This document shows positions 1-20,517 of a stretch of 64,000 nucleotides of DNA, in pieces. Numbering within the stretch: the first letter of the stretch is position 1; each line of letters starts with the position of its first letter. The stretch covers positions 19,902,001 through 19,966,000 of the forward strand of contig NC_043023.1 in the NCBI RefSeq assembly GCF_006345805.1. The letters are read 5' to 3'. Both the position numbers and the translations under genes were made by a program. The notes under the pieces were generated by a model. That model was not told where the DNA came from. It saw nothing but the letters and a program-made list of their open reading frames with translations, and searched no databases. This DNA comes from Octopus sinensis. Its lineage: Eukaryota.

Positions 1-91
1 TATATATATATATATAATATAAATGTGTGAGTATGTATGTATGTATATATATATATATATATATATAAATATAAATGTGTGAGTATGTATG

Positions 92-128
<37 letters not shown>

Positions 129-506
129 CAGTAAAAGCAATTAAGATTCAAGTGAGTTCTATTGAATTCACTTAAATGCAGTACTTAACTTAGATGCACC
201 AGAAAACTGTAGGGTATTATATATTTACCTAAATATATATATATATATATTTCTACATACAAAATTTAAAGGGCTGACCACTAAAAATGTACCGTCAACA
301 TGCTAGATATAGACGTCAAATCGCTATTTTCCACAAAGAATATGTTCTCAAATATAATGACAGAACATGCTAACGAGATTACAGTTTATCCTTGCGGATA
401 ATAATAATCAAAACTGATTCAGTACATGGGTAACTCATTTTTATTTCGTATATTTTCATTTGTCTTGCTTATTTTTAACGCTTTGGTATTGTGCTGAGTT
501 TTTATT
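1..506. repeat. Direct duplicate of ~19940-20413 (AT-rich, includes left arm of a fold-back element)
   Basis: Near-identical sequence from 'tattcagtaaaagcaattaagattc' through 'gctgagtttttatt' at both places; the copies diverge after 506/20413. Confidence 0.95.
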
Positions 507-538: not shown

Positions 539-2178
539 CACTTGCGTCGGAAATTAATTAGCACTTCTCAAATTTCTACATTTTCTTACATTTTCTTAAT
601 TTAATTAACTTATTATCAGAAACGAACTCGTTTATAATCAAAAATTTATTAAAACATATCCCAGCACACCACATAATTGTTATTAATCGTGAAATTTAGT
701 CAATATCTTGTTGCTCCTCCTTTGGCAGCAATGACAGCTGCTACGCGGGTCGGCATGCTGTCTATGAGTGCCTGCAGGTACTGTGCAGGGATGGCCCTCC
801 ATGCAGCAAGAAGTGCCCCAAACAGCTAGTGTCGGTTCAGGTCAGGTGACTGGCCAGGCCTGTCCATGACTGTCACCCCATGGTCCTTGAAGAAACCGGT
901 TGTGAGCTTGGCTGTGTGGGAAGGCACGTTGTCCTGTTGGAGCACGTACTCCTCGCCACCAAAGAGGTATCCCGTATTATCTCAACGCACTTTGCTGCGT
1001 TGATGTTGCCTTCGACGGCATAGAACCGCCCAACACCACTGTAGCTGAACGCCCCTCACACCATCAGACCACCCCCACTATGCTTCATGGTGAGAGCAAT
1101 GCAGTCTTTGTTGAAGCACTCACCCCTGCGGCGTCGCACATGGACAGGCTTGTCACTGACGAGACTGAATCGCGACTCGTCAGTGAACATCACTGTCCAC
1201 CACTGCTGCACGGTCCATGTCTTGTGGGCACGGGCCCAGAGCAGCCGCCTCTTCCAGTTTTGGGCTGTAAGGAGCGGCCCTACAGGATTTTAGACCAGCT
1301 TCCAGTAATCTGGTCTTGACGGTGGTTGTAGACAACTGCTTCCCTGTCATCTTTTGCATCTCCTCCGCCAGTTGCTGGCTCGTTGCCCTTCGGTTGTACA
1401 GCGACTTTCGGATCAGCATCCGGTCCTCCCGCTGGGTCGTCAGCCTCTTCCGTCCCCTACCCTTTTTGTCAGCTGCTGATCCAGTTTCCTCGTATTTCTT
1501 AAATAAGCACTGAATTGTGCGCCTGGCTACACCAAGTTTTCTGGCTATTGCAGCCTCCGACAGCTTCCCACGCCACGAGAGAGCCTCGTACCATCTCTCC
1601 AAGGTCATGCGAGGTCTTGGGCCTATCTAGGAATGAACGATAAAAACCAGTTATTTTCATTAAAACTATTCATTTGAATAATGTTATGCTATAACAAAAC
1701 TGCTATGAGTTATTATTCATTAAACAAAAAAGAAAGAAAGCAGAATTTCTCACCTTATTTGATGTATAACAGAAAGTTTTGTGAACCAGAAGTGACGTCA
1801 TCAAGCAGAGTGTAGGAGAATTTGTGAGGAAAAAAAATCTTGCAAATACACAAATCATTTAACCTACGAGCTGTTCAAAATGTCTTACGCGATGAGAAAA
1901 CTTAGTACGGTGTGATTTCGGTCCTTGCGAGGCGCTACCTATATCTATTAAACAAAGGAAGATTTGTCTGCATCCGCACTCCAAGTTGTTGTTGCACTGC
2001 TATGTCAACATCATTAGGCTGTAGACTCTCAAACTGCTCTGCAAACAAAGTTACGTCATCGTTCTGCGCAACAGTGAACTCACAACAAAGCAATAGTTCG
2101 AGATATGGCCACTAGGTGACAGCAAATACCTTGAGTGAAGAGAAAATCAAGGGTGCTAATTAATTTCTGACGGTAGTG
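539..2178 (-). mobile_element. Tc1-family DNA transposon, full length, defective
   Basis: 26-bp TIRs at 539-564 (cacttgcgtcggaaattaattagcac) and 2153-2178 (gtgctaattaatttctgacggtagtg); TA on both sides (537-538, 2179-2180). Confidence 0.93.
700..1626 (-). pseudogene. Tc1 transposase pseudogene (frameshifts, stops, internal deletion)
   Basis: HTH region with GRKR motif (ORF 1180-1608); other frames give VMFTDESRF, LQQDNVPSH, PGQSPDLN and the C-terminal SMPTRVAAVIAAKGGATRY*. Confidence 0.9.
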
Positions 2179-2857
2179 TATATTATGGCATATCTTTCTT
2201 GCCTACGCTCCAAGGAATAGAGCTTTAATCTCTTGAGTCTTTCCCAGTAGCTTACATTCTGCACAGAGGTTATCTTCTTCGTGTAGCTACGTTGGATCGC
2301 CTCAAGTTCTGTGATCAACTTGACACTGGATGGTGACCATAGCTGAGAGCAATAGTCAAAGTGGCTTAGGACAAGTGTCTTCCAGAGGACCATCATGGTT
2401 TCTTGTTCTCTTGTTCTAAAGGTTCTAAGAATCCATCCGGCCAGTTGTCTATATTTCATTGCCAATTTAGCAACATGTACACGAAAGGTTGCGTCATCAC
2501 TCATGTAAATACCCAGGTCACGCACTGATTGTGCCTCTGGGATTGCTATTCCTCTGGGTCCAGTGTATTCATTGGGTATTGCATTTAGTTTTGCATGCTG
2601 ATAGTATAAAGCTTGAAACTTTTCAGCATTGAACTGCATGCTATTCTTTTCAGCCCACTTGTATATTTTGTCCAGCTCACATTGCAGGCGTTTAGTGTCC
2701 TCAGGGTTCTGTATTGCCTGTGAAACTTTTGTATCATCTGCATAACTTGTGATTGTGGCTCTCTGTGTGGCTGAGGGCATGTCTGAGAGGGCCATTATGA
2801 ACAGTAGTGGTCCCAAAACAGTGCCCTGTGGAACACCGCTCACTGTTTGCGTGTTAA
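2179..2857 (-). pseudogene. Non-LTR retrotransposon (CR1/Jockey-group-like) reverse transcriptase fragment
   Basis: SGVPQGTVLGPLLF, SYADDTK, MQFNAEKF, RDLGI, DYCSQLWSP and LYSLERR motifs. Confidence 0.93.
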
Positions 2858-2903
2858 ATAGTTACTCCCGCCGTTTACCCGCGCTTGGTTGAATTTCTTC
2901 ACT

Positions 2904-2935
<32 letters not shown>

Positions 2936-4719
2936 CGCGTCTGTGCGGCTCGGCCGGCTACGCGATGCTCTGTTTTAATTAGACAGTCGGATTCCCCCGG
3001 TCCGTACCAGTTCCGAGTCGACCGTTCGCCGCCGGCCGAACGCCTGTCGCGCGACGACGACCGACCCCTTGCGGAGCCGAGCCGTGCGCGCACGGACGCG
3101 ACGGCGAGCCCGAAGCCGTGTCGCTCCACGGCGTCCCGTGTGTGGAATCGTTTTGTTCGCGCCCACTACGCCCCGGGCGCCCCGTATGAAACCGAGCCAC
3201 CGCAACGAACGACGGCCTGCGCACGTGCCGACGCACGAGAAGGCCACGCGCGCGGATCTGGCAGCCGCAACGACGTCCCAGCAACGCGCGCTCTTTCCGG
3301 ACCGAGAGGTCCGTAGGCGGCGGCACGCGACAGAACGCAGCGCAGCGGAGGGAGAGAACGCGTGCGTAGAAGCCGACCCGCGTTGACCGAAGGCGCGACC
3401 GCGCATCGGGGCGAAGCGGGTTGCCCGCCAACGCAGCGACGACCGTCGGAAAAATGGGGCGCACCGGGATGCCGAGTCCGACGCCAACGCTACAGCCCTG
3501 TACCGGTCCGCCGCTTCGCGTGAAGACGTGTTCCGGCGCCCGACCGACTCGGTCCTCGGAGCCAATCCTTCTTCCGAAGGTACGGATCCATTTTGCCGAC
3601 TTCCCTTACCTACATTGGCGCTATCGACAAGAGGCTGTATACCTTGGAGACCTGCTGCGGATGGTGGGTACGGACCGACTCGAGAGCTGCGATTCGTTAC
3701 GGACCCGGATTTTCCAGGGTCGCCGAGAGCGCACCGGACGCCGCCCGAGACGCGGCGCTCTACAAGTACCATATCCGTATCTCCGGACGAGCCGATTCCA
3801 CGGACGCGGTCCTTTACGAAGAAGAGAGAACTCTTCCCGGGGCTCCCGGCAACGTCTCCGGGCTCGCTTGCGTTGCCGCTGCTTCGCCGGCCGCCGGCTT
3901 CGACGACGGACGCGCTGCTAGGAAGAGCATGCCGCGTTCCCACCGACGGACGGGCACTCTCCGAGTTCGGGTTCGGGAATATTAACCCGATTCCCTTTCG
4001 ATGCGAGGCCGGCCGCGTAACTTACGTCGAACTATGGGAGTAGTACTTGTTTTCTAACGACGGATCCGGCGCCTTTCGTGGAAGCTTTCGCCCGCTTCTT
4101 AGGACCGATTGACCCGTGCTCGACCACCGTTGGCACGGAACCCTTCTCCACTTCGGTCTTCGAAGGTCTCGTTCGAATATTTGCTACTACCACCGAGATC
4201 TGCACCCGCGGTCGGCTTCACCCGGGCTCGCGCCCGCGGCTTCCATGCACGCCGCGGCGCCCTCCTACTCGACCGGGCATCGGAAAGTCGCCTCGCCGGC
4301 GATCGCGCAACCTGTCGCCCGGCCGGTCCGGCATCGGTCGCTCGCTCCAGCGCCATCCATTTTCGGGGCCGGTCGATTCGGCAGGTAAGTTGTTACACAC
4401 TCCTGAGCGGATTCCGACTTCCGTGGCCACCATCCTGCAGTCTATATCGACCGACACCCTTTCGGGGATCTAATGGGTGAAGCGTAGGGCACCTTAGCCG
4501 GACGTTCGGTTCATCCCACATCACCAGTTCTGCTTACCAAAAGTGGCCCACTTGGCACCGTGCATTCGTCGTCGCATAACGGCGGCCGCCTCCGATCGGG
4601 AGAGGAGCGGCCCGTTTCGCCCGTTCCGAGTTCGACAGTAGATCGAGGCCGTCAACGTCCCCGGGGCCTCCAGTCGTTCGCTTTACCGGACGGAATTGCG
4701 TGTCATTCTCCCGCTGGCG

Positions 4720-4762
<43 letters not shown>

Positions 4763-6002
4763 CGGCTCGATTGGTCTTTCGCCCCTACACCCGGTTCCGA
4801 TGATCGATTTGCACGTCAGAGGCGCTTCGGACTTCCACCAGAGTTTCCTCTGGCTTCGTCCCGACCGGGCGTGGATCGCCATCTTTCGGGTCCCCGGCCG
4901 CCTGCTACACCTGAGTCAGAGCGCCGTCTCGCTTTCGCTGTGCCGTCGGAGTTCGCGAAGTGAAAGGCTCCAACGACTCGCAGTCGACTGGGACTCCTCG
5001 GTCCGTGTTTCAAGACGGGTCGGGTAGGTTGCCGATGCTCGTCGCTGACCGGCAGCAGCGGGCGGCTTTTCGGGCGGGGTGTACGGCGACCGCAACGCGC
5101 GTCGCCCCCTTGCGAGGGTTCCGCGCAGTCGCGGCGCGCGGGCGGCCGCGTCGCTCACGACCTCCGAAGAGGCCGCGCGCGACTCGCTGCGTCGTTCGTG
5201 CTAAGGGCGAGGTGCGTTTGCCCGTCTCCGTCGGTTAGCCGTGCCTGCGCTTTACGTGGAGCGACGGGCCCGGTCGAGAAGAGCGCGTGGATCCCACCGA
5301 CCGCCGCTTGCGCGGCAGCGACGGGGCTCTCGTCTGCGACCTGCGGACGCCGCGCGCCTACCGGCCCGACGGGAAACGAGTCGCGACGACGGATCGGAGG
5401 GGAAGTGCGTCCGATGCCGGCGCCCCGGAAATCGAACGCCGACGAGGCGGCAGACCTCCGCCCGCGGAACGAGCGGCCGCCACCGGCGCGTTCGTCGACG
5501 ACGACGGCGCCTCGGCGGGAAGCAGCGGACTGAGTCGCCTCGCGATCGCGGTGAGCGGTCCTACCCGTTTACCCCTGGGCGGTTTCACGGTCTCTTGAAC
5601 TCTCTCTCCAAAGTTCTTTTCAACTTTCCCTCGCGGTACTTGTCGGCTATCGGGACTCGTCCCCGTATTTAGCCTTGATGGAGCTTACCACCCGCTTTGA
5701 CTGCGTTCCCAAGCAACCCGACTCTCGGGCCGATGAACACCGCCGATCGCCGCCGGCTCCGAATGGGCCTGGCACCCGCTCTGGGCAGCCCCGATCGAGG
5801 GGACTCCGAACCTAGCCGGGCGAAACGATCGACCGTGTACGACCCTTGCGCCACAGCTCTCGACGACCGTTGCGACCGACGAGATTCGGCGTTGGGCTTC
5901 TCCCGGTTCACTCGCCGTTACTTAGGGAATCCCGGTTGGTTTCTTTTCCTCCGCTTAGCGATATGCTTAAGTTCGGCGGGTAATCGCGTCCGAGTCGAGG
6001 GC
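2858..6002 (-). rRNA. 28S: 28S rRNA, 5' part, ending 13 nt upstream of the R2 insertion site
   Basis: Conserved LSU blocks, e.g. antisense tcctccgcttagcgatatgcttaag, ggtccgtgtttcaagacggg and ...atagttactcccgccgtttacccgcgc at the truncation. 5' boundary approximate. Confidence 0.97.
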
Positions 6003-6496
6003 AGCGTGAAAAAAAAGGAAGAGTTCCCCGCTGCAAAAGAGACGGCTGCCGCAGCTTGCTACCGGCGCACCACCGCTGTCGATCGGCACGAACGCTCGCA
6101 CGAAAGAGATATTCCCACAGAGCGAACGCCGAAAGACGAGACGGCGGCGGCGGCGGCAGCGGCGGCGGCGGCAGCGACGGCGACGGAGGGCGGCGGTTGC
6201 TCGGAGGGGAACGTAGAGGAGGACGCGGACGGGACGAGGGGCCTCGCCGTGTCGCCGCCGTTGTCGTTCCTGCTACTGATCATCCTTACTCCTCTGCTTC
6301 CGCTCGTCGGCGGGCTCCCTCCTCCGCAACAGCGCTTCGCAACGATGACGGTCTGGCATTACGGGAGACGGACGATCGAGCGGCGGCGGCACGCGCGCGA
6401 GATAATGCGGGCCTCGCGGCGAGCGCCGCCCTTTCCTGCGACTCCCGACTCCCCGCCGCAGCCAACGGCCGCGGCGGACTGCGTTTTCGTGTCTTG
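6003..6496 (-). other. ITS2
   Basis: GC-rich spacer between 5.8S and 28S. Confidence 0.85.
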
Positions 6497-6658
6497 ACCG
6501 CCTCTCGACCAGACGGGGCCCCGGGACGATAGGATCCCGGGGCCGCAATGTGCGTTCGAGGTGTCGATGTTCACTGAGTCCTGCAATTCGCATCAGTTCA
6601 CGCGGATAGCCGCGCTCTTCATCGACGGACGAGCCGAGTGATCCCCCGTCCAGGGTTT
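6497..6658 (-). rRNA. 5.8S: 5.8S rRNA
   Basis: Antisense ggccgcaatgtgcgttcgag...cctgcaattc...ctcttcatcgac...gagccgagtgatcc. Ends approximate. Confidence 0.95.
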
Positions 6659-7086
6659 CGGTATATTTGCTACTACTACTACATGCTACACGTACAGAAA
6701 AAGGAAAGCGGCAGCGGCCCCCGACAGGAGGCCGCCGCCGCGCGACGGAAAAATTAAAATAAAATTCGTAGGCGTCGACAGCGGAACGAAGCGCGCCACT
6801 GCCGACGCCAACGGCGAGGTAGGAAGGAAGAGAGAAATGGTCATGGAGCTCGCAAAGCGTGCAAGCCCGCGTCGTCCGAGCGCCATGAGGCGGGGCCGAC
6901 GGCCGGCAGGTGGTGCGCGGTCGGCAGCAGAGAGTGCGGCGTGTCGGCGGGCTGCCGCGACTGCTACTGCTGCGCTGTTAGAGGGCCGAAACAAGAGCAT
7001 TCGGTGGTACTCGGGCGAGGGGGCCCGGCCGCGACTTGAAGAAATTGGGCGGATCGCAAGTTTGCGTTTTCGAAAGAAGACGGCGC
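6659..7086 (-). other. ITS1
   Basis: Spacer between 18S 3' end and 5.8S. Confidence 0.85.
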
Positions 7087-7144
<58 letters not shown>

Positions 7145-7358
7145 AGCGATCGGGTTCGGTCGTCTTCTCCGGGCCATCAGAGAACGCGCCGACGACGGCG
7201 CGGAACGCCGACGACGGCGCGGAACGCCGACGACGGCGCGGAACGCCGACGACGGCGCGGAACGCCGACGACGGCGCGGAATGCCGACGACGGCGCGGAA
7301 CGCCGCCGCGCGTAAGCGGACTCGTCGGCCAGATCCGAGGACCTCACCGGACCGTTCG

Positions 7359-7401
<43 letters not shown>

Positions 7402-8071
7402 GATCGACGCGGGCTGATGACCGCGCCTACCGGGATTCCTCGTTCACGGGGTTGTTCCAGGCCCCGATCCCTATCACGGGAGGTGGTTCAGAGGTTCCCG
7501 ACCCTCTCGGGCCGGGGGAGACGCGCCCGCTGATACCTCCAGAGTAGCGCGCGTGCAGCCCCGGACATCTAAGGCATCACAGACCTGTTATCGCCCCGCC
7601 TCGTGCGGCTTTCTGCCGCCCGTCCCTCTAAGAAGCGCTGCGTTCGCCAACCGACTGGCCCGACGCGACGGCGTGCCGCCGCCGGGCTCGCGCGGGCCGA
7701 GCCGACGGGTCACCGCCGCCGCTCCGCACCGACGCCGCAACCACGCCGCGACGGCCCCCGCGAGGGGGACGGCAGCCGACGCGGCCGCGCAGCGCCGGAC
7801 GCGAAGGAGAGCGGCGGCAACGGCAAGCCCGGGCCGCGCGCGGAGCTACCGACGACGGCTTCGGCTCCGCCGCGCTACCGGAAAAGCACTAATCGACGCG
7901 CTAATTAGCAGGCCGGAGTCTCGTTCGTTATCGGAATCAACCAGACGGATCCTCCACCAACTAAGAATGGCCAGCACCCACCACCCACCGAATCGAGAAA
8001 GAGCTATCGATCTGTCAATCCTACCGTGTCCGGACCGGGTGAGTTTTCCGTGTTGAGTCAAATTAAGCCGC

Positions 8072-8115
<44 letters not shown>

Positions 8116-9736
8116 CTGTTTTGCAACCATACTCCCCCCGGAACCGACTATGGTTTCCCGCGCAGGCTCCCCGCCGGGTCATCGAAGCGAACGCCGGCAG
8201 AGCGCCAGTCGGCATCGTTTACGGTCGGAACTACGACGGTATCTGATCGTCTTCGAACCTCCGACTTTCGCTCTTGATCGAGGAAAACGTGCTTGCCACA
8301 CGCCGTCGCTGCAGTGCGTCTTGCGACGATCCAAGAATTTCACCTCTAACGTCGCAATACGAGTGGCCCGATCGCTCCCTTCGATCATTGCCTCGTCGTG
8401 AACGGAGACCGACGGATGACGCGCGGACGAGGCCATTTTCCATCATTCCATGCTTTTCGTATGCAAGCCGGCGGGGCTCGCTCTGAGCACTCTAATTTTT
8501 TCACAGTGAACGTACCGGCCGCCTCGGACACTCGGCGAAGAGCACCCTCGGAGGAACCGTGCGGGCCGAAACGACCGGGAGGTGGACGCGCTACTACCGC
8601 TAGAACGCGAACGGCGACGACGCCCAATAGCGCACCCGCCTCGTGGCTCCCGCGCGCGCCTGACCGACCCGCACCGTTGAAGGCGCAGGCGTGAAACCGG
8701 ACGCGACGCGGCGCGGGCGAAGACGAGCGCTGGACGGGGTGCCGAGTCGCGAATAGGGCCGGGAGTGCGAACGGACGACCGAAGCGGACGCGCCAGAAGC
8801 GCGCCTGCGACGGCGCCGTCGCCCCGAACGTGCTGGGGCACGTTTTCGAGACCCGAATTCCGACTACGAGCTTTTCAAACGCAACAATTTTAATATACGC
8901 TACCGGAGCTGGAATTACCGCGGCTGCTGGCACCAGACTTGCCCTCCGGTCGATTCTCGTTAACGGATTTGAAGTGTACTCATTCCGATCGCGGGGCCTC
9001 GACAGAGTCCCGCGTCGTTATTTTTCGTCACTACCTCCCCGTGCCGGGAGTGGGTAATTTGCGCGCCTGCTGTCTTCCTTGGATGTGGCAGCCGTTTCGC
9101 ATGCTCCCTCTCCGGAATCGAACCCTGATTCCCCGTTACCCGTTGCCACCACGGTCGGCACTGACCGGGCCGTCGACAGTTGATAGGGCGGACTCGCGGG
9201 GGACCCGTCGCGCGAAGGCTAGTGCGATACTAGCCCGTGCGATCGTACTGACAGTTATCCAGAGTCACCAAAATCGAAGGGCGTGAAGCCGCCGCACGCC
9301 TAAGACCCGCGCGCGGAAGGCGCGGGGCGCGGTGCGACGGCCCGTACGCGTAGGTCTCAGTCTAATATTTGCGCCGCGACCAATGCGGAAGGCCGACCGT
9401 ATCGTCGCGACCGGGAGGGACGGGCGCGGATGCGCCGCCCCCGAACCGGCCGAGCGGACGCCGGCGGCGAACGACGGCGAAGACGCGACGGCTGCCGAAC
9501 GCCGTTTTCGAGCCCGACACCCGGGTGCGACGTGCGATCGCGGCTTCGGTTGCATGTATTAGCTCTAGAATTGCCACAGTTATCCACTCTCCTCGCGGTG
9601 GAAGAATACGGTCCCGAGGATTAGGTCCGGTTCCTGAGCCATTCGCGGTTTCACCATTCGTTTACGGCATGAACTTACACTTGCATGGCTTAAGCTTTGA
9701 GACAAGCATATGACTACTGGCAGGATCAACCAGGTA
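7087..9736 (-). rRNA. 18S: 18S rRNA, unusually long (~2650 nt) with large GC-rich expansion segments
   Basis: 5' end TACCTGGTTGATCCTGCCAG at 9736; 3' end CTGCGGAAGGATCATTA at 7087; universal blocks gacgggcggtgtgtac and attaccgcggctgctgg present. Confidence 0.98.
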
Positions 9737-11049
9737 TCACCGACGTACGTTTCGAGAGAACGATGCGCGGCGGCGGCGGAAGCTCGGGAAGCAGCGCCGA
9801 CGATCGGAAACGAAAACGAGAACGAAAGGAATCGGAGGGGCCGAAAACAGGGGCACGGGCGCTCACGAGTTCGGCCGCCGTTCGTATACGCGCGCGCCTC
9901 CTCCCCGAGGAGGAAAAGAGGCGAAAACAACACGAGTCGACGCGCGAAGAAGCGTTCGCGGAGCAAAAGCGGTTTGCGATCCGACTGCCGCACACCGGGG
10001 CCGCTGCGGACGGGCTCCGGTGCGGGTCGATTTGAAGTGGGGCCGGTTACGGGCGGAAGAGGAGGAGAAGGCGAAGAAGGCCAGCGACTAGGTCGGCAGA
10101 CGAGAGGGGCAGCGGCGATTGGCGCGGGCCCGCTGCAGCTTTTAGACTCGCCCGGCGCCCTATGCGTCGGTGGTCGTCGTCGCTTCCTCCACCTGATCCT
10201 TTCGAAACGGCTGCGACGAACTGCGTCCGGACTGCGGTCAACGAGCGAATGCCATGACGGTGGTCGCCACGAAAACGACGCGCGCCAAGGCGGGGTGATG
10301 CCGGGAAGGGAAAAAAAGCTGCAGAAACGCTACGAGGCAGCGAAACCCGGAGTTGAAGCCACGGTTCTGTCTAGGGAAGAAGGGGACAGACACGGCACCG
10401 CTCTCTTTCGGAGACGCCGCGTCGCCTGTGGGGGAACGGGAAGCGACGGCTAGCCCGTCCGCCGCGCCGGCGGCGACGCAACACGAGGTCAGCGGCGTAA
10501 CCTGACCGGGTCCTCGGCTGCGAAGACGAGGCCGGGGGTCGGAAGAAAAAAAAACGCGGTAACGAGAAGCGGTTCGATTGCGAGAGGACGAACCTGCGGG
10601 CGTGAAGAGGCGGGCAGACGCGGGCGTCGAGGGAGCGCGTATGAAAGACGGGCGGTGTGGCGGCGGCGGCAGACATTCGAGGACGCGCCAGCCTTCGCCC
10701 GCCTCCGGATGTTCGGAGGCGGGCGAAGGCGGGCGAAGGCGTGCGTCGAAAGGTGCGGGTAGAACGTAGCGTCTGATAGGCGGGCGTGAAGAAGCGGACG
10801 TCCAGAGGCGGGCGAAGGCGGATGAAGGCGAGCTTCAAAAGGCGGGCGAAGGCGGGCAAACGCGGGCGTCAACGGGCGGGCGAACGCAGCGTCTGAAAGG
10901 CGGGCGGTTCGGCGGCGGAAATTCGAGGACGCGCCGGCCGTGTAGAGTCGATCTTGCACCGGCAAACGGGGAGCTAACCGTCGTCAGAAAAGGAGCTACG
11001 AGGACATCCCTCCGAGACGGTAACCTATGCCGATCAACCACAACCCTAC
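9737..11049 (-). other. 5' external transcribed spacer
   Basis: Lies between the proximal copy of the repeated promoter-like block and the 18S 5' end; contains short ggcgggcgaa repeats. Start site inferred. Confidence 0.6.
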
Positions 11050-11150
11050 ATATTAGTCTGGAACCCCTTGGGGTGCGACGGTCACCTAGAGCGTGACTAT
11101 CCAGCCGGGGCCGATCCGTTTGCTTACGGTCCCAGCACCTCCTTACTCAC
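11040..11150 (-). promoter_or_regulatory. Putative Pol I gene promoter, duplicated upstream at ~11905-11990 and ~12675-12770 (spacer promoters)
   Basis: Block 'ccccttggggtgcgacggtcaccta' occurs three times. Homology breaks at a TATGTAGGG/TATTGAGGG-like motif on the minus strand, resembling rDNA initiation sites. Confidence 0.55.
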
Positions 11151-13130
11151 GGGTCGGACCACGTAGCTGTTTTTACCCGGTGCATATCGCCACGCACACC
11201 CGGCGACTGACGGCATCGATCGCGCCTACGTCCACGTGTACGTGGGCGAGAGCGCAAGTTTCGCTTAAGCTCCACTTCAGCCTCGCCGTAGCGCGGCGGA
11301 GCTGCGAGCGAAGGCGGTAGAAGGCGGGCGCATGCCCGCCACTATCGGCCGTTGCCTGCACTGGCCGCAGTTTGTCATCTTTCGGAAATTTACGGGACGG
11401 ACCACGTCGCCGTATCGAACGCCCGCACCTCGCGACATCGGTCGCGGCTACGTCCACGCTTACGTGGGCGAGACCGCCCGCTTAAGTTCGTGCTTTCGAT
11501 TTCACGCACGGTAGGGCGGCGGAGACGCGGGCGACCGGCGCAGGCCTTCCGCCGCTACCTCGTGCTAGCCGCAGTTTGTCATCTTTCGGTATTTTACGGG
11601 ACGGACCGCGTCGCCGTATCGACCGCGTGCATCTCGTGAACGCCTTCCGGCATCGGTGGCGGCTACGTCCACGCGTACGTGGACCATACGGCGAGCTTAG
11701 GTTCGTTCTTTGGATTTCGGGCACGGTAGCGCGGCGGAGGAACGGGCGACAGGCGCAGGCCTGCCGCCAACGTCCCCGCTGCGCGTGGACTAACGGAGAA
11801 AGCGAGGCGGCGCGAAGGCGGCGGCCACCCGCCGGGCTGACGTCGTCTTAGGCTAACGTCTCGGGCATCCTGCCGAACGGTCCCGGAGACATCCACCTGC
11901 TGACTGCAAGCCCTCAATATAGTCTTGACCCCCTTGGGGTGCGACGGTCACCTATCCAGTCGGGGCCGATCCGTTTGCTCACGGTCCGAGCACCTTCTCC
12001 TACTCACGGGTCGGACCACGTCGCTGTTTTTACCCGGTGCATATCGCCACGCACTCCCGGCGACTGACGGCATCGATCGCGCCTACGTCTACGTGTACGT
12101 GGGCGAGAGCGCAAGTTTAGCTTAAGGCGCGCTTCAGCCTCGCAATAGCGCGGCGGAGTCGCGGGCGAAGGCGGGCAGAGGCGCGGGCGAAGGCGGACGC
12201 AGGCCCGCCGCTATCGGCCGATACCTGCACTGGCCGCAGTTTGTCATCTTTCGGGAATTTACGGGACGGACCACGTAGCCGTATCGAACGCCTGTACCTC
12301 GCAACATCGGTCGCGGCTACGTCCACGCGTACGTGGGCGATACCGCTCGCTTAGTTTCGTGCTCTCGATTTCACGCACGGTAGGGCAGCGGAGACTCGGG
12401 CGACCGGCGCAGGCCTGGCGCAGGCCTGCCGCTACCTAGTGCTAGACGCAGTTTGTCATCTTTCGGGATTTTACGGGACGGACCACGTCGCCGTATCGAG
12501 CGCGGGTATCTCGTGAACGCCTTCCGGCATCGGTGGCGGCTACGTCCACGTGTACGTGGGCCATACCGCGGGCTTAGGTTCGTTCTTTCGATTTCGGGCA
12601 CGGTAGGGCGGCGGAGCAACGGGCGACCGGCGCAGGCCTTCCGAACGGTCCCGGAGACATCCACCTGCCGACTGCAAGCCCTCAATATAGTCTTGACCCC
12701 CTTGGGGTGCGACGGTCACCTAGAGCGTGACTATCCAGCCGGGGCCGACCCGTAAGCATACGGGTCTGATTCCTTCGACTTACGGGTCGGACCACGTCGC
12801 TCCATTTACCCGGTGCGTATCGCCACACGCCCACGGAGACTGACGCCATCGATCGCGCCTACGTCCACGTTGACGTGGGCGAGAGCCTGATGTTCGCTTC
12901 AGCCTCACTAGATCGGGCACGGCAGCGCGGCGGAGCTCCGCGCGACTGGCGCAGGCCCGCCAATACCTGCACTGGCCGCAGTTTGTCATCTTTCGGGAAT
13001 TCACGCGACGGACCACGTCGCCCCATCGACCGCGTGTATCTCGTGACATCCTTGCGGCATAGGTCGTGGCTACGTCCAGGTGCCCGTGGGCGACACCGCG
13101 AGCTTAGGTGCGTTCGTTCGATATACCAGG
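11050..13130. repeat. IGS subrepeats (~770-865 bp period; internal ~200 bp subunit)
   Basis: 'cgcagtttgtcatctttcgg...acggaccacgtcgcc' recurs at ~11367, 11570, 12236, 12447 and 12978. Confidence 0.85.
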
Positions 13131-13189
13131 CACGTGAAATCGCCGCTTCGATCGCGTCGATAACACACACTCGTGGTCTTCGTCGTAAC

Positions 13190-13422
13190 TCAGCTCTGCT
13201 ATCGCTAGACAGTAGTAAATAGGGACAGCGGGAATATCCTCGTCGCCTTCGATCCGTTCACCTTGAGAGAGTCGAAGTTACTCCCGCCGTTTACCCGCGC
13301 TCGATACCGAGAACTTCTTCAAGCCCGTACCCTCGGCTCTGCTTTCGCTAGACAGTAGACAGGGACACGCTCCTCGCCTTCGATCCGTTCACGCGGCGCC
13401 TCGCCAATCGGACGACGATGCC
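13190..13422 (-). repeat. Two degenerate copies of the 28S R2-target region within the 3'ETS/IGS
   Basis: 13276-13301 is identical to 2860-2885; 13320-13367 matches 15343-15390 at 43/48. Confidence 0.9.
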
Positions 13423-13874
13423 GAGAACTCGCCGCTTCGACAACCCGCACTCGCGGTGTCCGCCGCGTACTACTCAGACTCTGTCCGTCGCTGCGCGAGA
13501 CCGGGGCTCGGGCCCGATGCCGACGAGCAACAACTCGTCGGCGGTGCAGGAGGTTACGAACGGCCGGAATGCCGCATGCTGGCGCCACAACCCCGTGTAC
13601 GCGCGCACTAAGCAGGAGGTGCCGTTTCTTCCACTTCTCACTTAAACGAACCCGCAACGGAGCGCGCGCTGCTAAGCCGATGCGCGCTCGATTCGGCGGC
13701 CGAGACGAAGGCGGTTACGGCGACGACTACTACCGCGCGCCGAGTCGATCGCCGCAGACAAGACAAGACACAACGCAACGCAACACTTCGTAACTCCGAC
13801 TCCCAGCCGCAACACTTTCGCCATCTTTCGCACCTCCTCCTGCACCTGCTTCTCCGCCTCGAAGGGGCGGATCG

Positions 13875-14529
13875 TGTCATTCGCGAGAAGAGACTCAATA
13901 GATCGCAGTGTGGTAGCTGCTCTACTAAGCACGTCACTCCGAACGGCAAGTCGGGTCGTATGCAAGCGATCCCTTTCGTCTCGATCTCTTCAAACTAGTC
14001 GGGGCGGGACGACGAGCAGACGACTACGGCGCGAACGCCGCAGTCGCCGCCGCGTCCCCGAATGGCAATTCCGCCGGCGACGCTGCCGCTCGCCGCGCGA
14101 ACGCGACGGGCGGACGGCGAACGCGACGGGCGGACGGCGAACGCGACGGGCGGACGGCGAACGCGACGGGCGGACGGCGAACGCCGAGCTAAGGCATGCG
14201 CCTTGAGGTTGAGACGCTTTTGGAAAACAACTCGGGTCCGGCTACGGTTCCGGCTTAGAGGCGTTCAGCCGTTATCGCTCAGAGGCAGCCTGGCACCACC
14301 GCTCTATCGAGCGAGCGCGCAAACCGTTGCTCTGATCCCGCGGTACCTCTCGTACTGGACGGGATAGCCGTAGCCGAGTTGACGTTGCCGACGCCCGCCT
14401 AAGGTCGGCCGGAGAAACGCCGGCGGCACGGCCAGGACGGACGACGCGCGAGCGCGCCGCCGCCTCGACCGCACGCCGAGTACCCCGACGCGACTCGGGG
14501 CGCCGCGTACGCGCGATGCATCGGTAGGA

Positions 14530-14576
<47 letters not shown>

Positions 14577-15293
14577 GTTAGTGGGTGAACAATCCAACGC
14601 TTTGCGAATTCTGCTTCGCAATGATAGGAAGAGCCGACATCGAAGGATAAAAAAGCGACGTCGCTGCGAACGCTTGGCCGCCACAAGCCAGTTATCCCTG
14701 TGATAACTTTTCTGACACCTCTCGGCGGACGCATAGCTCGCCGCTGTAATTTGGAAAGGATCGATGGGCCACGCTTTCGCGGTCCGTATTCGTACTGAAA
14801 ATCGAGATCGAGCGAGCTTTTGCCCTTTTGCTCGACGTGTGGTTTCCGTCCACGCTGGGCTCGCCTTGGGACACCTGCGTTACCGTTTGACAGACGTACC
14901 GCCCCAGTCAAACTCCCCGACCGACACTGTTCTCGACTAAGGGTCGCGCATCGGCTGCGCCGGCGCCCGCAAAGGCGCCCGACATGCACCGCGCGCTTCG
15001 CACCAGATAATGAACCACCGCTCGGCGACGGCCCGATCCCTTCTCCATCGAGTGAGCGAGGAAACTACGGAAGTGGCGGTTTTTCATCGTCGCAAACGCG
15101 CGCGACACCCCGACGTCGAACGCGCTTAGCCGACGGCGCCCACGGCGCACCGACGAGACCGACCGCCGCACGCGAAGCGCGACGGTGCGGACAACGAACA
15201 GCACGCCAGCGCGCCGCCGGTGACGGCAGCGCCCGGCGCGGGGCAACGCGAATGCTACCGCCTATGCTACGCCTACCGTGTGCCCTCACAAAA

Positions 15294-15333
<40 letters not shown>

Positions 15334-15340
15334 CGATCCG

Positions 15341-15375
<35 letters not shown>

Positions 15376-15410
15376 CAGTAGATAGGGACAGTGGGAATCT
15401 CGTTGATCCG

Positions 15411-15450
<40 letters not shown>
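13875..15450 (-). rRNA. 28S: 28S rRNA, 3' part, starting exactly at the R2 site (TAGCCAAATGCCTCGTCATC)
   Basis: Peptidyl-transferase region blocks (gagccgacatcgaagg, ctcacgacggtctaaacccagctc) and 3'-terminal tcaatagatcgcag. 3' boundary approximate. Confidence 0.97.
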
Positions 15451-15726
15451 TCTAAGTGAGACTAAATAGTGTCTCCTTCCCTTTATTTAACGTGGGTGGT
15501 CCCACACTGTCCAGCCAGGTCCCAGCTTGTGTTAATCTTAAAAGAAAAAAAGTACAAAAAAAAACAAAAATCTACCTAAGTAGTGGGGATCTAAAACTAA
15601 CAGCGAAGCGGGTGCTTTTTCGATGGGCAGAAGAAGCTGAAAGTCCAATCCGGGTTGTTATTTTAATTTTTCTTATGTTTTAATTTTAAGCTCATATCGA
15701 GGCACGGCCCCCAAACCATGCCACCT

Positions 15727-15757
<31 letters not shown>

Positions 15758-17422
15758 ATTGAGGGGCATCCTACACGCCAGCCTCTCGGTCCTCGAAAAA
15801 AAAAAAAAAAAAAGAAATTTTGAGGACTTCATCGAGGGGGTTTTATGTGCAGGATCCGATAGAAACTATCAGGGTCGAGTTAGGTATGTGAGCCATTAGT
15901 ATTACCTGCAGTGTAAATGGCTCTATACAACTGCAGGAAGCGTTGATATCGGCCCAACGTGGTTGGGCAACACGCTCGGCCTGGCTTGGAGACCCGCTCT
16001 TTTGCCCACAAGCCACCATCTTATACGGCCCCTGGCAACCGTGTGTTTCGTAACTTTTCGTTAAGGAATTGGACTTCGCGGCATTTTCCAAGAGTACGTG
16101 GAAGAAAATCAAGAGTACAAGAGTAAGGAGTCAAACCCTGCAGACCGTAAGCAAACATCCTCCCTAGCCAACCGAAATCCGCATACCAAGCCAAATACCC
16201 TGCAACAGTCCGCGAAGGGCTCAATACTGATGGTTTACCCGTCAGTTTACCCGGCATCCTCGCCGCCCTTCTCGAGTGAGGTACTGGATGCTGGCCAAAA
16301 GTGAGTCTACTCCCACATTAACATGTGTGAGCCACAACAATCTGGCGTCAGGAGACAAAGTCGTGAACCACCCAGGGCTCATTATTGACGGTTTACCCGT
16401 CAGTTGACTGGCTCCCGTAGTGAGGCCAAAAGTGAGTCCACTCCCACATTAACATGTGTGAGCCACAACAATCTGGCGTCAGGAGACAATGTCGTGAACC
16501 ACCCAGGGCTCATTATTGACGGTTTACCCGTCAGTTGACTGGCTCCCGTAGTGAGGCCAAAAGTGAGTCCACTCCCACATTAACATGTGTGAGCCACAAC
16601 AATCTGGCGTCAGGAGACAATGTCGTGAGCCACCCAGGGACAGCAGGGACAGCAACCTTCACGAGGCGCTAACTTTTGGCGAGATAAGAGGCAGGATGGA
16701 AGCACCCCATCCCTACCTCGCCCCGTCAGCAGCCCAATCCGGAGAGCGAACCCACCCGTTCTGACCTTGGCCGTCCGTGGGCGCCGCCCCGTGAAATTCT
16801 AATATAGAAATAGGGGGCCTTCACACCACACCGATGCCAGGTAGTGGCCGATCCGGATGAGCAGGAGGCCGACAAGCGCAACCACGACCAACCAGCAGGG
16901 TATCATCCCACTCTGCACACGATAATCCTCCACACTGCTTGGTCCCCACCAATTAATTGGAACCGCTATGGGGGAAGGACACATTTAGTTAGTCTGCGGA
17001 CGGGTTGGCGCCCGCAAGGCCAATAACGGCTTGCGTCCCACCCGCAGACGTAAGCTCTTAAACCACGACAAGGTAGTGTCCCTGTGGGTGAATCCTGGCA
17101 GTGCATCCATCTCCCGGGTTAAACCCGGCAGATCATAACATACCAGACAAACTTGATGGTGCATCCACCCTCTCACCTCGCTGCCAATGTTCCAATCGGA
17201 CACTGCAGGTGTATATCCCCCTATACACCACCCACACCGATGTTCCTATAGGACACCGCAGGTGCCCCCAACCGCTGGATCTTTTCTGCCCCCAACGAAA
17301 CTCGGTGGGGTGGGGACAAATCGTATCAAGACGTGTTATTAGTGTAAGTTCACCCCAAGTGGATGAGCAGTAGGAACACCCACCCATTGCAAGGTTCGTG
17401 GGTCATAACCATCAAGCCCCAC
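15451..17422 (-). mobile_element. 5'-truncated, decayed R2-like retroelement (3' end with long structured 3' UTR)
   Basis: Its 3' junction lies precisely at the canonical R2 nick site of 28S. Fragmentary peptides (ARIH.., VPINWWG) only weakly recall the R2 C-terminus; no intact ORF. Confidence 0.65.
16294..16639. repeat. 131-bp tandem repeat, ~2.6 copies
   Basis: 'gccaaaagtgagtc..ctcccacattaacatgtg' starts at 16294, 16425 and 16556. Confidence 0.95.
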
Positions 17423-17426
17423 TTAA

Positions 17427-17497
17427 GGTGGCTACTACCACCTGACTTCTATCTTTCAGAAAGTCATGAAGCCATTCTCCCAGTTTTCCAACTATGC
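17427..17497 (-). pseudogene. LINE RT fragment, proximal piece (IVGKLGEWLHDFLKDRSQVVVA)
   Basis: Peptide type that normally lies just upstream of the SGVPQG motif found at 2843. Confidence 0.85.
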
Positions 17498-17641
17498 TAT
17501 ATATATATATAACTAATATATATATAACCAATAGCTAAATTCTTTGGCTGCTATTTCTAAAAGCTCGGTATGTGGTAAAGCAAATTATTTTTTGATGAAC
17601 CCTAATTATATAAAGTAATGTTTATATGTATATATATATAT

Positions 17642-18679: not shown

Positions 18680-19135
18680 ACCACTCAAACGGTGATCCAG
18701 CATCGGTCCGCTCACCGCTGCCATCCGATGATACGAAAAAAACAATCAGTCTCCCGGGCGCCCGTTCATTCGACGAGGTGTAAACCATCGTCTGTTTAGG
18801 ATCAGCGATTCTGTTCGGAGAGACTTGCTTAAGAGAACAGCTACCACACTGCGGTGTGTTGCGTCTATTCTTGCGGAAGACATGATCCCGCATCGGAGGC
18901 GTGGTGTAGCTCGGTGTCAAGAACTTAGTATCATCCGACGACATCGGTGGCGTGAATCACTCGGGAAACGATCAAAACTGAACGGTGCCGGAAAAGATGG
19001 CTCTAAGCGCCAGAATATGCATCCTCTTGTTTCATGACGTCAAGATGTCTGTCTGTCGGTCTAAGTCTCTTTCGGAGTTTAAGCAAAGCTGGGGCATCCT
19101 CGCCGCCCTTCTCGAGTGAGGTACTGGATGCTGGC
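18680..19135 (+). pseudogene. Diverged 28S-derived mosaic fragment, inverted relative to the rDNA unit
   Basis: 18811-18853 matches the reverse complement of 13904-13946 at 37/43; shorter matches to other 28S regions. Confidence 0.6.
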
Positions 19136-19311: not shown

Positions 19312-19935
19312 CAGTCATGCAGGCAGACAGACAGACAGACATAGGAAGGGAAAGAGAGAAAGAGATTGAGAGAAATGAAGATAGCAAAGAGAGAGAGAGG
19401 GGGGGAGGAAGATAGAAAATGAGTAGAGATGGAGTAACAAGGGAGTGGTGTATATGATTAGCATAAAGAGGAGAGTATGAGGCAAGAGGCATAGTGAGAG
19501 GATATTATATGAGGCGGAGAGAAAAGAGAGATATTGATACATAGAGAGAGGGAGATACTGACGTGGGAGAGAAAACAAAAGAGGTAGAGGGATATTAGGA
19601 TATATAAGGTGGTAAAGAGGGAGAGAGTGAGAGAGAAAGGGGGAGAAGGAGAGAGAGGTGACGTATGATTTATATACTTTGTGGGAGAGGGAGTGTATCA
19701 GATTAGAGAGAGTAAGAGAAGCAGACAGGAGTTATACAGGAATGTATAAAGGAGTGAAAGGAAGAGAGAGAGAGAGATAAGTAGAGAAGCTTTGCTATAT
19801 ATATATAAATGTGTGTGTTTGAATGTGTTTGTGTGTGAATGTGTGTATTTGTGTAAATGTGTGTGTGTGTTTATGTATGTGTGTGTGTGTACGCAGAGAT
19901 TGTGATCGGTGATAGAAAACAAGAGAATTGGGGTG

Positions 19936-19966
<31 letters not shown>

Positions 19967-19990
19967 TAAATGTGTGAGTATGTATGTATG

Positions 19991-20036
<46 letters not shown>

Positions 20037-20153
20037 TCAGTAAAAGCAATTAAGATTCAAGTGAGTTCTATTGAATTCACTTAAATGCAGTACTTAACTT
20101 AGATGCACCAGAAAACTGTAGGGTATTATATATTTACCTAAATATATATATAT

Positions 20154-20517
20154 ATATTTCTACATACAAAATTTAAAGGGCTGACCACTAAAAATGTACC
20201 GTCAACATGCTAGATATAGACGTCAAATCGCTATTTTCCACAAAGAATATGTTCTCAAATATAATGACAGAACATGCTAACGAGATTACAGTTTATCCTT
20301 GCGGATAATAATAATCAAAACTGATTCAGTACATGGGTAACTCATTTTTATTTCGTATATTTTCATTTGTCTTGCTTATTTTTAACGCTTTGGTATTGTG
20401 CTGAGTTTTTATTTGAGAACATATTCTTTGTGGAAAATAGCGATTTGGTGTCTATATCTAGCATGTTGACGGTGCACTTTTAGTGGTCAGTCTTTTAAAT
20501 TTTGTATGTAGAAATAT
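20154..20517. repeat. Fold-back element with ~108-bp inverted arms
   Basis: 20154-20261 is the approximate reverse complement of 20410-20517. Confidence 0.9.

Follow-up and report, generated by a model that had tools for sequence, protein, structure and literature searches.

The DNA analysed here, a 64,000-nucleotide stretch of the Octopus sinensis genome (RefSeq assembly GCF_006345805.1, contig NC_043023.1, positions 19,902,001 to 19,966,000; the window), carries a real, R2-linked, unit-length rDNA orphon, as dispersed rDNA is termed, and the locus is a variant of known things. The insert (2858-17427/8, minus strand) amounts to one rDNA unit of ~14.57 kb, circularly permuted at the R2 site and complete save for 28S -13 to -8 and -1 (28S positions are counted upstream from the R2 site). 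The first-pass annotation had supposed a unit-long insert shaped by the R2 machinery, and both points stand, the insert being one unit in length with both ends at the R2 site. It had further proposed a retrocopy of a read-through transcript that a ribozyme had clipped at -13. We consider it fairly probable, instead, that an abortive element integration freed the unit as DNA, as a circle or by adjacent cuts, and that a chromosomal break captured it. The features are as follows.

2858 to 17428, minus strand: rDNA orphon, one unit permuted at the R2 site, ~14.57 kb (Rfam and junction analysis)
2858 to 5980, minus strand: 28S 5' part, ending at -14 at 2858 (Rfam LSU 3626-5980 and 2870-2924; junction)
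5981 to 7086, minus strand: ITS2, 5.8S (6499-6657) and ITS1 (Rfam)
7087 to 9736, minus strand: 18S rRNA gene (Rfam)
9737 to 13868, minus strand: 3' ETS, intergenic spacer and 5' ETS, with three promoter-like repeats near 12710, 11942 and 11076 (putative function)
13869 to 15451, minus strand: 28S 3' part, starting at the R2 site (TAGCC...; Rfam and junction)
15452 to 17421, minus strand: full-length ORF-less R2 derivative, SIDE-like, 1.97 kb (comparison of genome copies)
15474 to 15507, minus strand: 3'-terminal motif common to autonomous R2, 86-91% over 35 columns (alignment)
16253 to 16295, plus strand: 43-nt patch, private to this copy and matching flank 19093-19135 exactly
16976 to 17082, minus strand: predicted HDV-like ribozyme core (motif search and alignment, as for the next two lines)
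17082 to 17075, 17074 to 17062 and 17061 to 17055, minus strand: predicted core parts P2 5', P3/L3 and P1 3' strand (TTAAGAG)
16988, minus strand: candidate catalytic C in J4/2; P4 and P2 3' also lie in the predicted core
17422 to 17428, minus strand: insert 5' end, a 28S-derived leader CTTAAG (-7 to -2) plus one C, untemplated or flank-derived
2177 to 2857, minus strand: host repeat, downstream half (RVT_1 fragment, high copy; comparison of repeat copies)
17429 to 17498, minus strand: host repeat, upstream half (comparison of repeat copies)

The insert reads 5' to 3' as C, CTTAAG, the 1.97-kb element, 28S from the R2 site on, spacer, 18S, ITS1, 5.8S, ITS2 and 28S to ...GGAGTAACTAT at 2858. 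Rfam places the 28S 3' part, spacer, 18S, 5.8S and 28S 5' part on the minus strand between 15339 and 2870. The spacer is a short-spacer variant, closest to that of the orphon on contig C1; its shortening is common to both, and was ruled out as a change private to the insert. The insert is isolated as an orphon should be: it lies outside an array, interrupts non-rDNA sequence and is decaying, and the 10 kb upstream of it hold no rDNA.

At 2858/2857 the minus-strand 28S, reading ...GGGAGTAACTAT, is joined to a dispersed, high-copy RT-fragment repeat of ~765 bp, whose two halves (2177-2857 and 17429-17498) flank the insert in register. At the insertion 15 nt of this repeat were lost and no target was duplicated; the full 15 nt are present in 7 of 9 other copies. 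A 10-nt-shorter allele of the repeat, found at L007, would account for the extra C and cut the loss to 5 nt. All nine other copies have A, not T, before the left-flank sequence, so the 28S end lies exactly at -14, and the one-nucleotide T ambiguity that had been allowed for disappears. The 13 nt before the R2 site said to be gone are indeed absent at the 2858 end, as judged against an uninserted site (L031), but six of them (CTTAAG, -7 to -2) stand at the other end, at 17422-17427. Neither a poly(A) tail nor a target-site duplication, which together mark a processed pseudogene made by a LINE, was found at the insert ends. R2-type priming at TAGCCA in the host repeat was ruled out, as this motif sits on the wrong side of the insert. 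A rough calculation puts the chance of both ends falling in a 30-nt window at the R2 site at ~4e-5 if the ends are independent (14 orphons) and at ~5e-3 for single-break circles, the window having been picked for this feature, so that neither value is an unbiased P.

The search for an empty-site paralog returned right-flank paralogs on C4 (near the contig end) and C12424 that have no host repeat and differ upstream, and no true empty site. The host repeat is flanked on each side by a copy of a duplicated ~700-bp segment (window 1-506 plus the 244 nt preceding it; 19738-20413), and the repeat itself is split at 539-2176 by an unrelated ~1.6-kb insert that we take by eye to be transposase-like. 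The low-copy flank contains an old 76-nt piece resembling the 28S 3' end (18813-18888, 82%), and 32475-59300 is a higher-order satellite in which 42-, 63- and 107-bp arrays recur every 4-7 kb. The 43-nt patch inside the element is absent at that place in 9 of 9 other locus records (which represent fewer distinct copies). It matches the low-copy flank 1.7 kb outside the insert exactly and is one base off the C4 paralog, i.e. it is the local allele; a private 131-bp triplication (16293-16639) adjoins it.

The element is full length, its 5' end being the same as in copies joined to intact 28S (L016, L020), and the supposed 5' truncation of the insert inside R2 is thereby withdrawn. A genome search with the element gave 60 matches, most of the long ones sharing this 5' end; copies on intact 28S read GACTCTCTTAAG followed by TGGGG. 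Here and in other copies the element occupies the R2 site, with its 3' junction to TAGCC and its 5' junction after CTCTTAAG. It has no ORF (longest stop-to-stop frame, 98 aa), and tblastn of the local R2 protein against eight sequences matched only L046 and gave no match to this element. A Pokey-like DNA transposon at TTAA was ruled out: the ends are not a duplicated TTAA, and a ribozyme and an R2 3' end are present.

An autonomous R2 of 4.6 kb with an ORF of 1311 aa exists in the same genome, where R2 also shows an ORF of 1155 aa and an RVT_1 domain. The best PDB matches of the 1311-aa ORF are R2 proteins (E 5e-158 and 1e-149). By eye the protein has three zinc-finger-like motifs and one Myb-like motif; these motifs suggest lineage A, and R2 is active-looking in this genome. 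R2 in molluscs is described in PMC5035012 and also in PMC13188248. The element and the autonomous R2 have in common only the ribozyme core and the 3'-terminal motif. Their predicted 5' ribozymes appear related, with the same P3/L3/P1.1/P4 start and compensatory P2 and P1.

In site, predicted ribozyme, R2 3' end, lack of an ORF and autonomous partner, the element's sequence matches the definition of an R2 SIDE, which comes from Drosophila willistoni (PMC3414825). Both are ORF-less R2-site inserts with a 5' HDV-like ribozyme, an R2-like 3' end and an unrelated middle, and both have variable 5' junctions and an autonomous partner. As set against the account in PMC3414825, the octopus element is larger (1.97 kb versus 529 bp), and its P1 uses upstream 28S (-9 or -11) whereas the D. 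willistoni SIDE uses its own 5' end; the octopus SIDE-like elements also differ in having no poly(A), several subfamilies and copies outside rDNA.

Several further R2-related sites were seen. In the 3' spacer lies a degenerate version of the 28S R2 target whose upstream motif is intact (window 13160-13400); a motif search found this pseudo-target in four units. On C14 it has received a SIDE-like element (L012/L174, G000:C14:24.965 Mb), which makes it a natural decoy. Outside rDNA, copies of R2 and of SIDE-like elements start at -10 to -4 of the 28S leader (G000:C16:28.10 Mb, C10:40.16 Mb, C22:9.24 Mb, C5:128.06 Mb and C1:194.65 Mb). At G000:C27:14.07-14.12 Mb and C9332:58-72 kb, a 187-bp 28S piece forms tandem arrays together with a diverged second R2 lineage (64% to L056); the arrays also contain SIDE-like heads, whose 5' units are reiterated up to several times.

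We turn to the predicted ribozyme. The element core reads ACC-TTGTCGT-GGT and then TTAAGAG, which pairs 7/7 with 28S -9 to -3. Changes in P1 are compensatory and leave the register as it is: copies with the junction CTCTTAC carry GTAAGAG, and one with TCTTTC carries GAAAGAG. The autonomous R2 and a second SIDE-like subfamily carry AAGAGAG, which pairs 7/7 with 28S -11 to -5. The core could be parsed in 17 of the 25 loci examined for P1 register, and in all 17 the -13 register (P1 3' strand against 28S -13 to -7) gives only 1-4 Watson-Crick pairs of seven. Motif search and an alignment of 10 copies gave a nested double pseudoknot of P1, P1.1, P2, P3 and P4 in which L3 and the C of J4/2 are conserved. 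Between the element and R2 there is covariation in P2 and in P4, and C-(T/G)-A-A is retained in J4/2. The minimum-free-energy fold shows P2, P3 and P4 at a z of only -1.2. An Rfam scan of the element, in which P1 is split by a ~340-nt loop, returned no ribozyme match, only three chance-level matches at E<=10. The 7-bp P1 register starts at C-9 or C-11, not at a G. A G first after the cut is usual in HDV-like ribozymes, although not invariant, and a C there is unusual.

Junction footprints agree with these registers. From 30 distinct junction contexts we set aside 6 that were continuous with 28S and 6 that were point-mutated, pseudo-target or join-type. The 18 informative ones, ectopic or reiterated, come from 10 loci, two of them of one tandem cluster and hence not independent. 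They start at -11 (12 contexts, all of the AAGAGAG family), at -10/-9 (4) and at -7 (2, including this window), with 0 of 18 at -12 or -13. The AAGAGAG family has 12 clean starts at -11, one more at -9 and none at -13. By sequence inspection, P1 of the autonomous R2 could be extended to 9 nt and as far as G-13 at the cost of one A-C mismatch, which would give exactly -14; no trace of this longer P1 appears in the footprints. The site at -13 is therefore probably not the one used in this genome, contrary to the original proposal, and the predicted cuts are at -9 (element) and -11 (autonomous R2). Because P1 registers and junction starts give -9/-11 and none at -12/-13, the ribozyme-like footprint, as read from the sequence, is the insert 5' end at 17427 and not the originally flagged end at 2858. 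The 5' end lies 2 nt inside the predicted -9 cut, and the 3' end 2-4 nt short of a predicted product end.

The first-pass annotation was right that -13 and -28 are published R2 cut sites. PMC3774820 reports both in other species, -13 being that of the jewel wasp and of flour beetle B, within a range of 9-36 nt upstream, and states that ~7 nt after P3 set the site and that tandem junction duplications mark the cut. The octopus ribozymes are alike in that 28S supplies the P1 5' strand and ~7 nt after P3 would set the site; they differ from those at -13 and -28 in predicted cuts at -9 and -11, both before C. The text of PMC3774820 does not name -11, which its figures may list.

Other orphons were collected with R2-site queries from the best 40 matches of each search, a sample that is incomplete and biased toward the R2 site. 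Besides unplaced contigs and the paralogs of one orphon, it holds at least 13 further multi-kb rDNA orphons, on contigs of chromosome scale, whose ends fall in spacer, 18S, ITS1 and 28S. Among those listed, one on C2 is about unit-long with both ends in ITS1, one on C3 is near unit-long, and one on C11 starts 7 nt inside the element. Four loci (L028, L029, L030 and L049) retain a 7/7 P1 junction together with at least 0.5 kb of upstream 28S; for orphons with such intact ribozyme junctions capture as DNA is favoured, because a cleaved RNA could not supply the upstream 28S. At target-site level, 10 other orphons gave a duplication only on C4 (33 nt), the rest being <=8 nt.

The 28S ends found elsewhere scatter around the site. 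At imprecise junctions the upstream 28S stops at -12 (L032, L046, L047, L038), -8 (L055), ~-7 to -5 (L033-L035, L050) and -3 (L045 type), and in three short pieces that stand isolated it stops at -9, -8 and -7. On sequence inference, then, the single -13 breakpoint proposed at first gives way on two counts, with a different predicted cut and other 28S ends at -7, -8, -9 and -12. The -14 end is 2 nt past the join range (-12 to -3) and 2-4 nt short of the ribozyme product end, so position alone cannot decide. In 37 of the best 40 upstream matches, this window was the sole multi-kb one ending in non-element sequence near the R2 site.

Decay of the insert was compared with that of the other orphons. 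This copy carries 1.4-1.7% private substitutions, mostly C>T/G>A, and eight private deletions of at least 8 nt in its genes. At 1.68% substitutions it has 11 deletions per 10 kb, in line with orphons of like age (8-19 at 1.4-2.4%), so we read the deletions as decay and not as a mark of reverse transcription; the orphon C18r is lower, with 4 per 10 kb at 1.44%. Hairpin deletions as a signature of reverse transcription were ruled out, since deletions scale with age across 16 units. In a weak test, no base-modification misreads were found at three motifs.

Among the other orphons, three (C10:22.96 Mb, C28:3.17 Mb and C11:55.37 Mb) have ends that cluster within ~260 nt in what is presumed to be 5' ETS, the last promoter-like repeat lying 440-710 nt upstream of them; the cluster is possibly a 5' ETS processing site or a fragile GC-rich repeat. 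A very young 18-kb orphon (G000:C3:32.02-32.04 Mb) starts inside R2 and ends in 28S, at the centre of a 16-bp palindrome. In the about unit-long one at G000:C2:131.72-131.74 Mb both ends lie in an ITS1 tandem repeat, and its R2 5' deletion breaks the ribozyme.

The topology of the insert is that of an imprecise R2 5' junction with the chromosome in the middle. In the release as DNA that we favour, the element RNA is predicted to have cut itself at -9. R2 protein acting in trans would have nicked a 28S target and copied the 2-kb RNA, leaving a cDNA end at ~-7 on the downstream 28S. The 5' junction may then have stayed unsealed to the upstream 28S end, itself cut or trimmed to -14. Had the target been on a one-unit rDNA circle, or had R2 made a second cut in the next unit, a linear unit would have been freed. 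The structure observed, with 5-15 nt of the repeat copy lost and no duplication, would reflect its end-joining there. This reading is supported by the insert 5' end at -7, which resembles the starts of elements elsewhere that are ectopic or reiterated (-7 to -11), and by its needing reverse transcription of 2 kb, not 14.6 kb. A DNA break by the R2 endonuclease with slight resection, which the first-pass annotation had kept as its alternative, is the better fit to the -14 end.

Published work supplies precedents. R2Tg, an avian R2, cleaves both DNA strands and is capable of breaks independent of TPRT (PMC12222951). Junctions of the 5' end to non-rDNA sequence are among those defined in PRINT data (PMC11371274), deletion of rDNA increases with R2 activity (PMC3542110, citing Zhang 2008), and circles of rDNA are known (PMC10946416). 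Against release as DNA, no direct footprint tells it from RNA copying, and -14 falls outside the observed join range, 2 nt (R2, -11) or 4 nt (element, -9) short of the product end. It also asks for several events at once, namely integration, a circle or else another cut, and breakage at a distant site. The promoter-like spacer repeats would make read-through plausible, and the three clustered 5' ETS ends could be RNA ends.

The original read-through retrocopy loses its cut at -13 and its truncation in R2, and survives in modified form as a doubtful but possible origin: a 14.6-kb read-through Pol I RNA, cut at -9 by the element and at -9/-11 by the next unit and trimmed by 2-4 nt, would have been copied in full into a break. 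The insert 5' end within 2 nt of a predicted cut and the 3' end within 2-4 nt of the product end are what it predicts, as are sense-strand continuity and the promoter-like repeats, and the mismatched P1 to G-13 would yield -14 exactly. That P1 is at odds with the clean starts of the AAGAGAG family, none of which is at -13. The retention of ETS, ITS and spacer means that 12 kb of pre-rRNA must have escaped termination and processing. The deletion density like that of orphons of similar age, the lack of poly(A) and TSD and, weakly, the three unchanged modification motifs also speak against it, and 37 of the best 40 matches include no multi-kb sibling that is 5'-truncated and ends at -10 to -14. 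The wider claim, that the insert is a full RT copy of a 14.6-kb unprocessed Pol I RNA bounded by the R2-family ribozymes of neighbouring units and that R2 elements are able to move entire rDNA units onto new chromosomes by retrotransposition, we regard as unlikely.

Quite improbable is the capture of an rDNA circle, or of a fragment of an array, in which the element was already present and which R2 re-cut at the element's 5' junction, or which broke there, with no fresh reverse transcription. A single circle break would give both ends, and R2-family elements of this genome do insert with only upstream homology, as in the spacer pseudo-target (C14) and in tandem (C9332). A cut at the upstream motif, at ~0/-2, would nevertheless leave no -7 to -2 on the element side unless a second nick fell at least 7 nt upstream. 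An assembly mis-join of a collapsed rDNA array into the repeat is hardly credible: that no listed contig from 4+4 public runs spans either junction is uninformative, whereas the flanking halves of one repeat match in register, no N lies at the junctions, the copy has its private, mostly C>T/G>A substitutions, and the patch inside the element equals the unique-type flank in its local allele, not that of C4.

The release of a unit as DNA also sets the locus beside known systems. Like the R2 'join' and 'other' 5' junctions in PRINT, where a non-rDNA category exists, it would have a cDNA end joined without annealing; unlike those described in PMC11371274, it brought with it a whole unit's downstream rDNA and is fixed in a natural genome. 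It resembles rDNA orphons and reintegrated extrachromosomal circles (PMC10946416) in being dispersed, decaying, unit-length, permuted and without array context, and is unlike them in that both ends are at the R2 site and one is cDNA-like. A literature search returned nothing on rDNA orphons together with R2, on octopus R2 with 28S, or on R2 deletion with extrachromosomal rDNA; it covered few subscription papers and is weak evidence of novelty. With the same limited coverage, most searches on dispersed rDNA were without result, and none on HDV first-pair tolerance gave any. LINE-made rRNA processed pseudogenes likewise place rRNA sequence in dispersed sites; this insert differs from them in having no poly(A) or TSD, in keeping its spacers and in its unit length.

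Work on karyotype evolution still asks how rDNA comes to seed new sites on chromosomes. The ribozymes of the R2 and SIDE-like family in this octopus are predicted to cut at -9 or at -11, the shift being matched by compensatory changes in P1, and to start on C. The insert is a fixed natural case in which both ends point to R2, and it suggests that an R2 integration that fails can carry off an entire rDNA unit. The locus also gives a caution for R2-based gene insertion, in which unsealed 5' junctions could move flanking rDNA.
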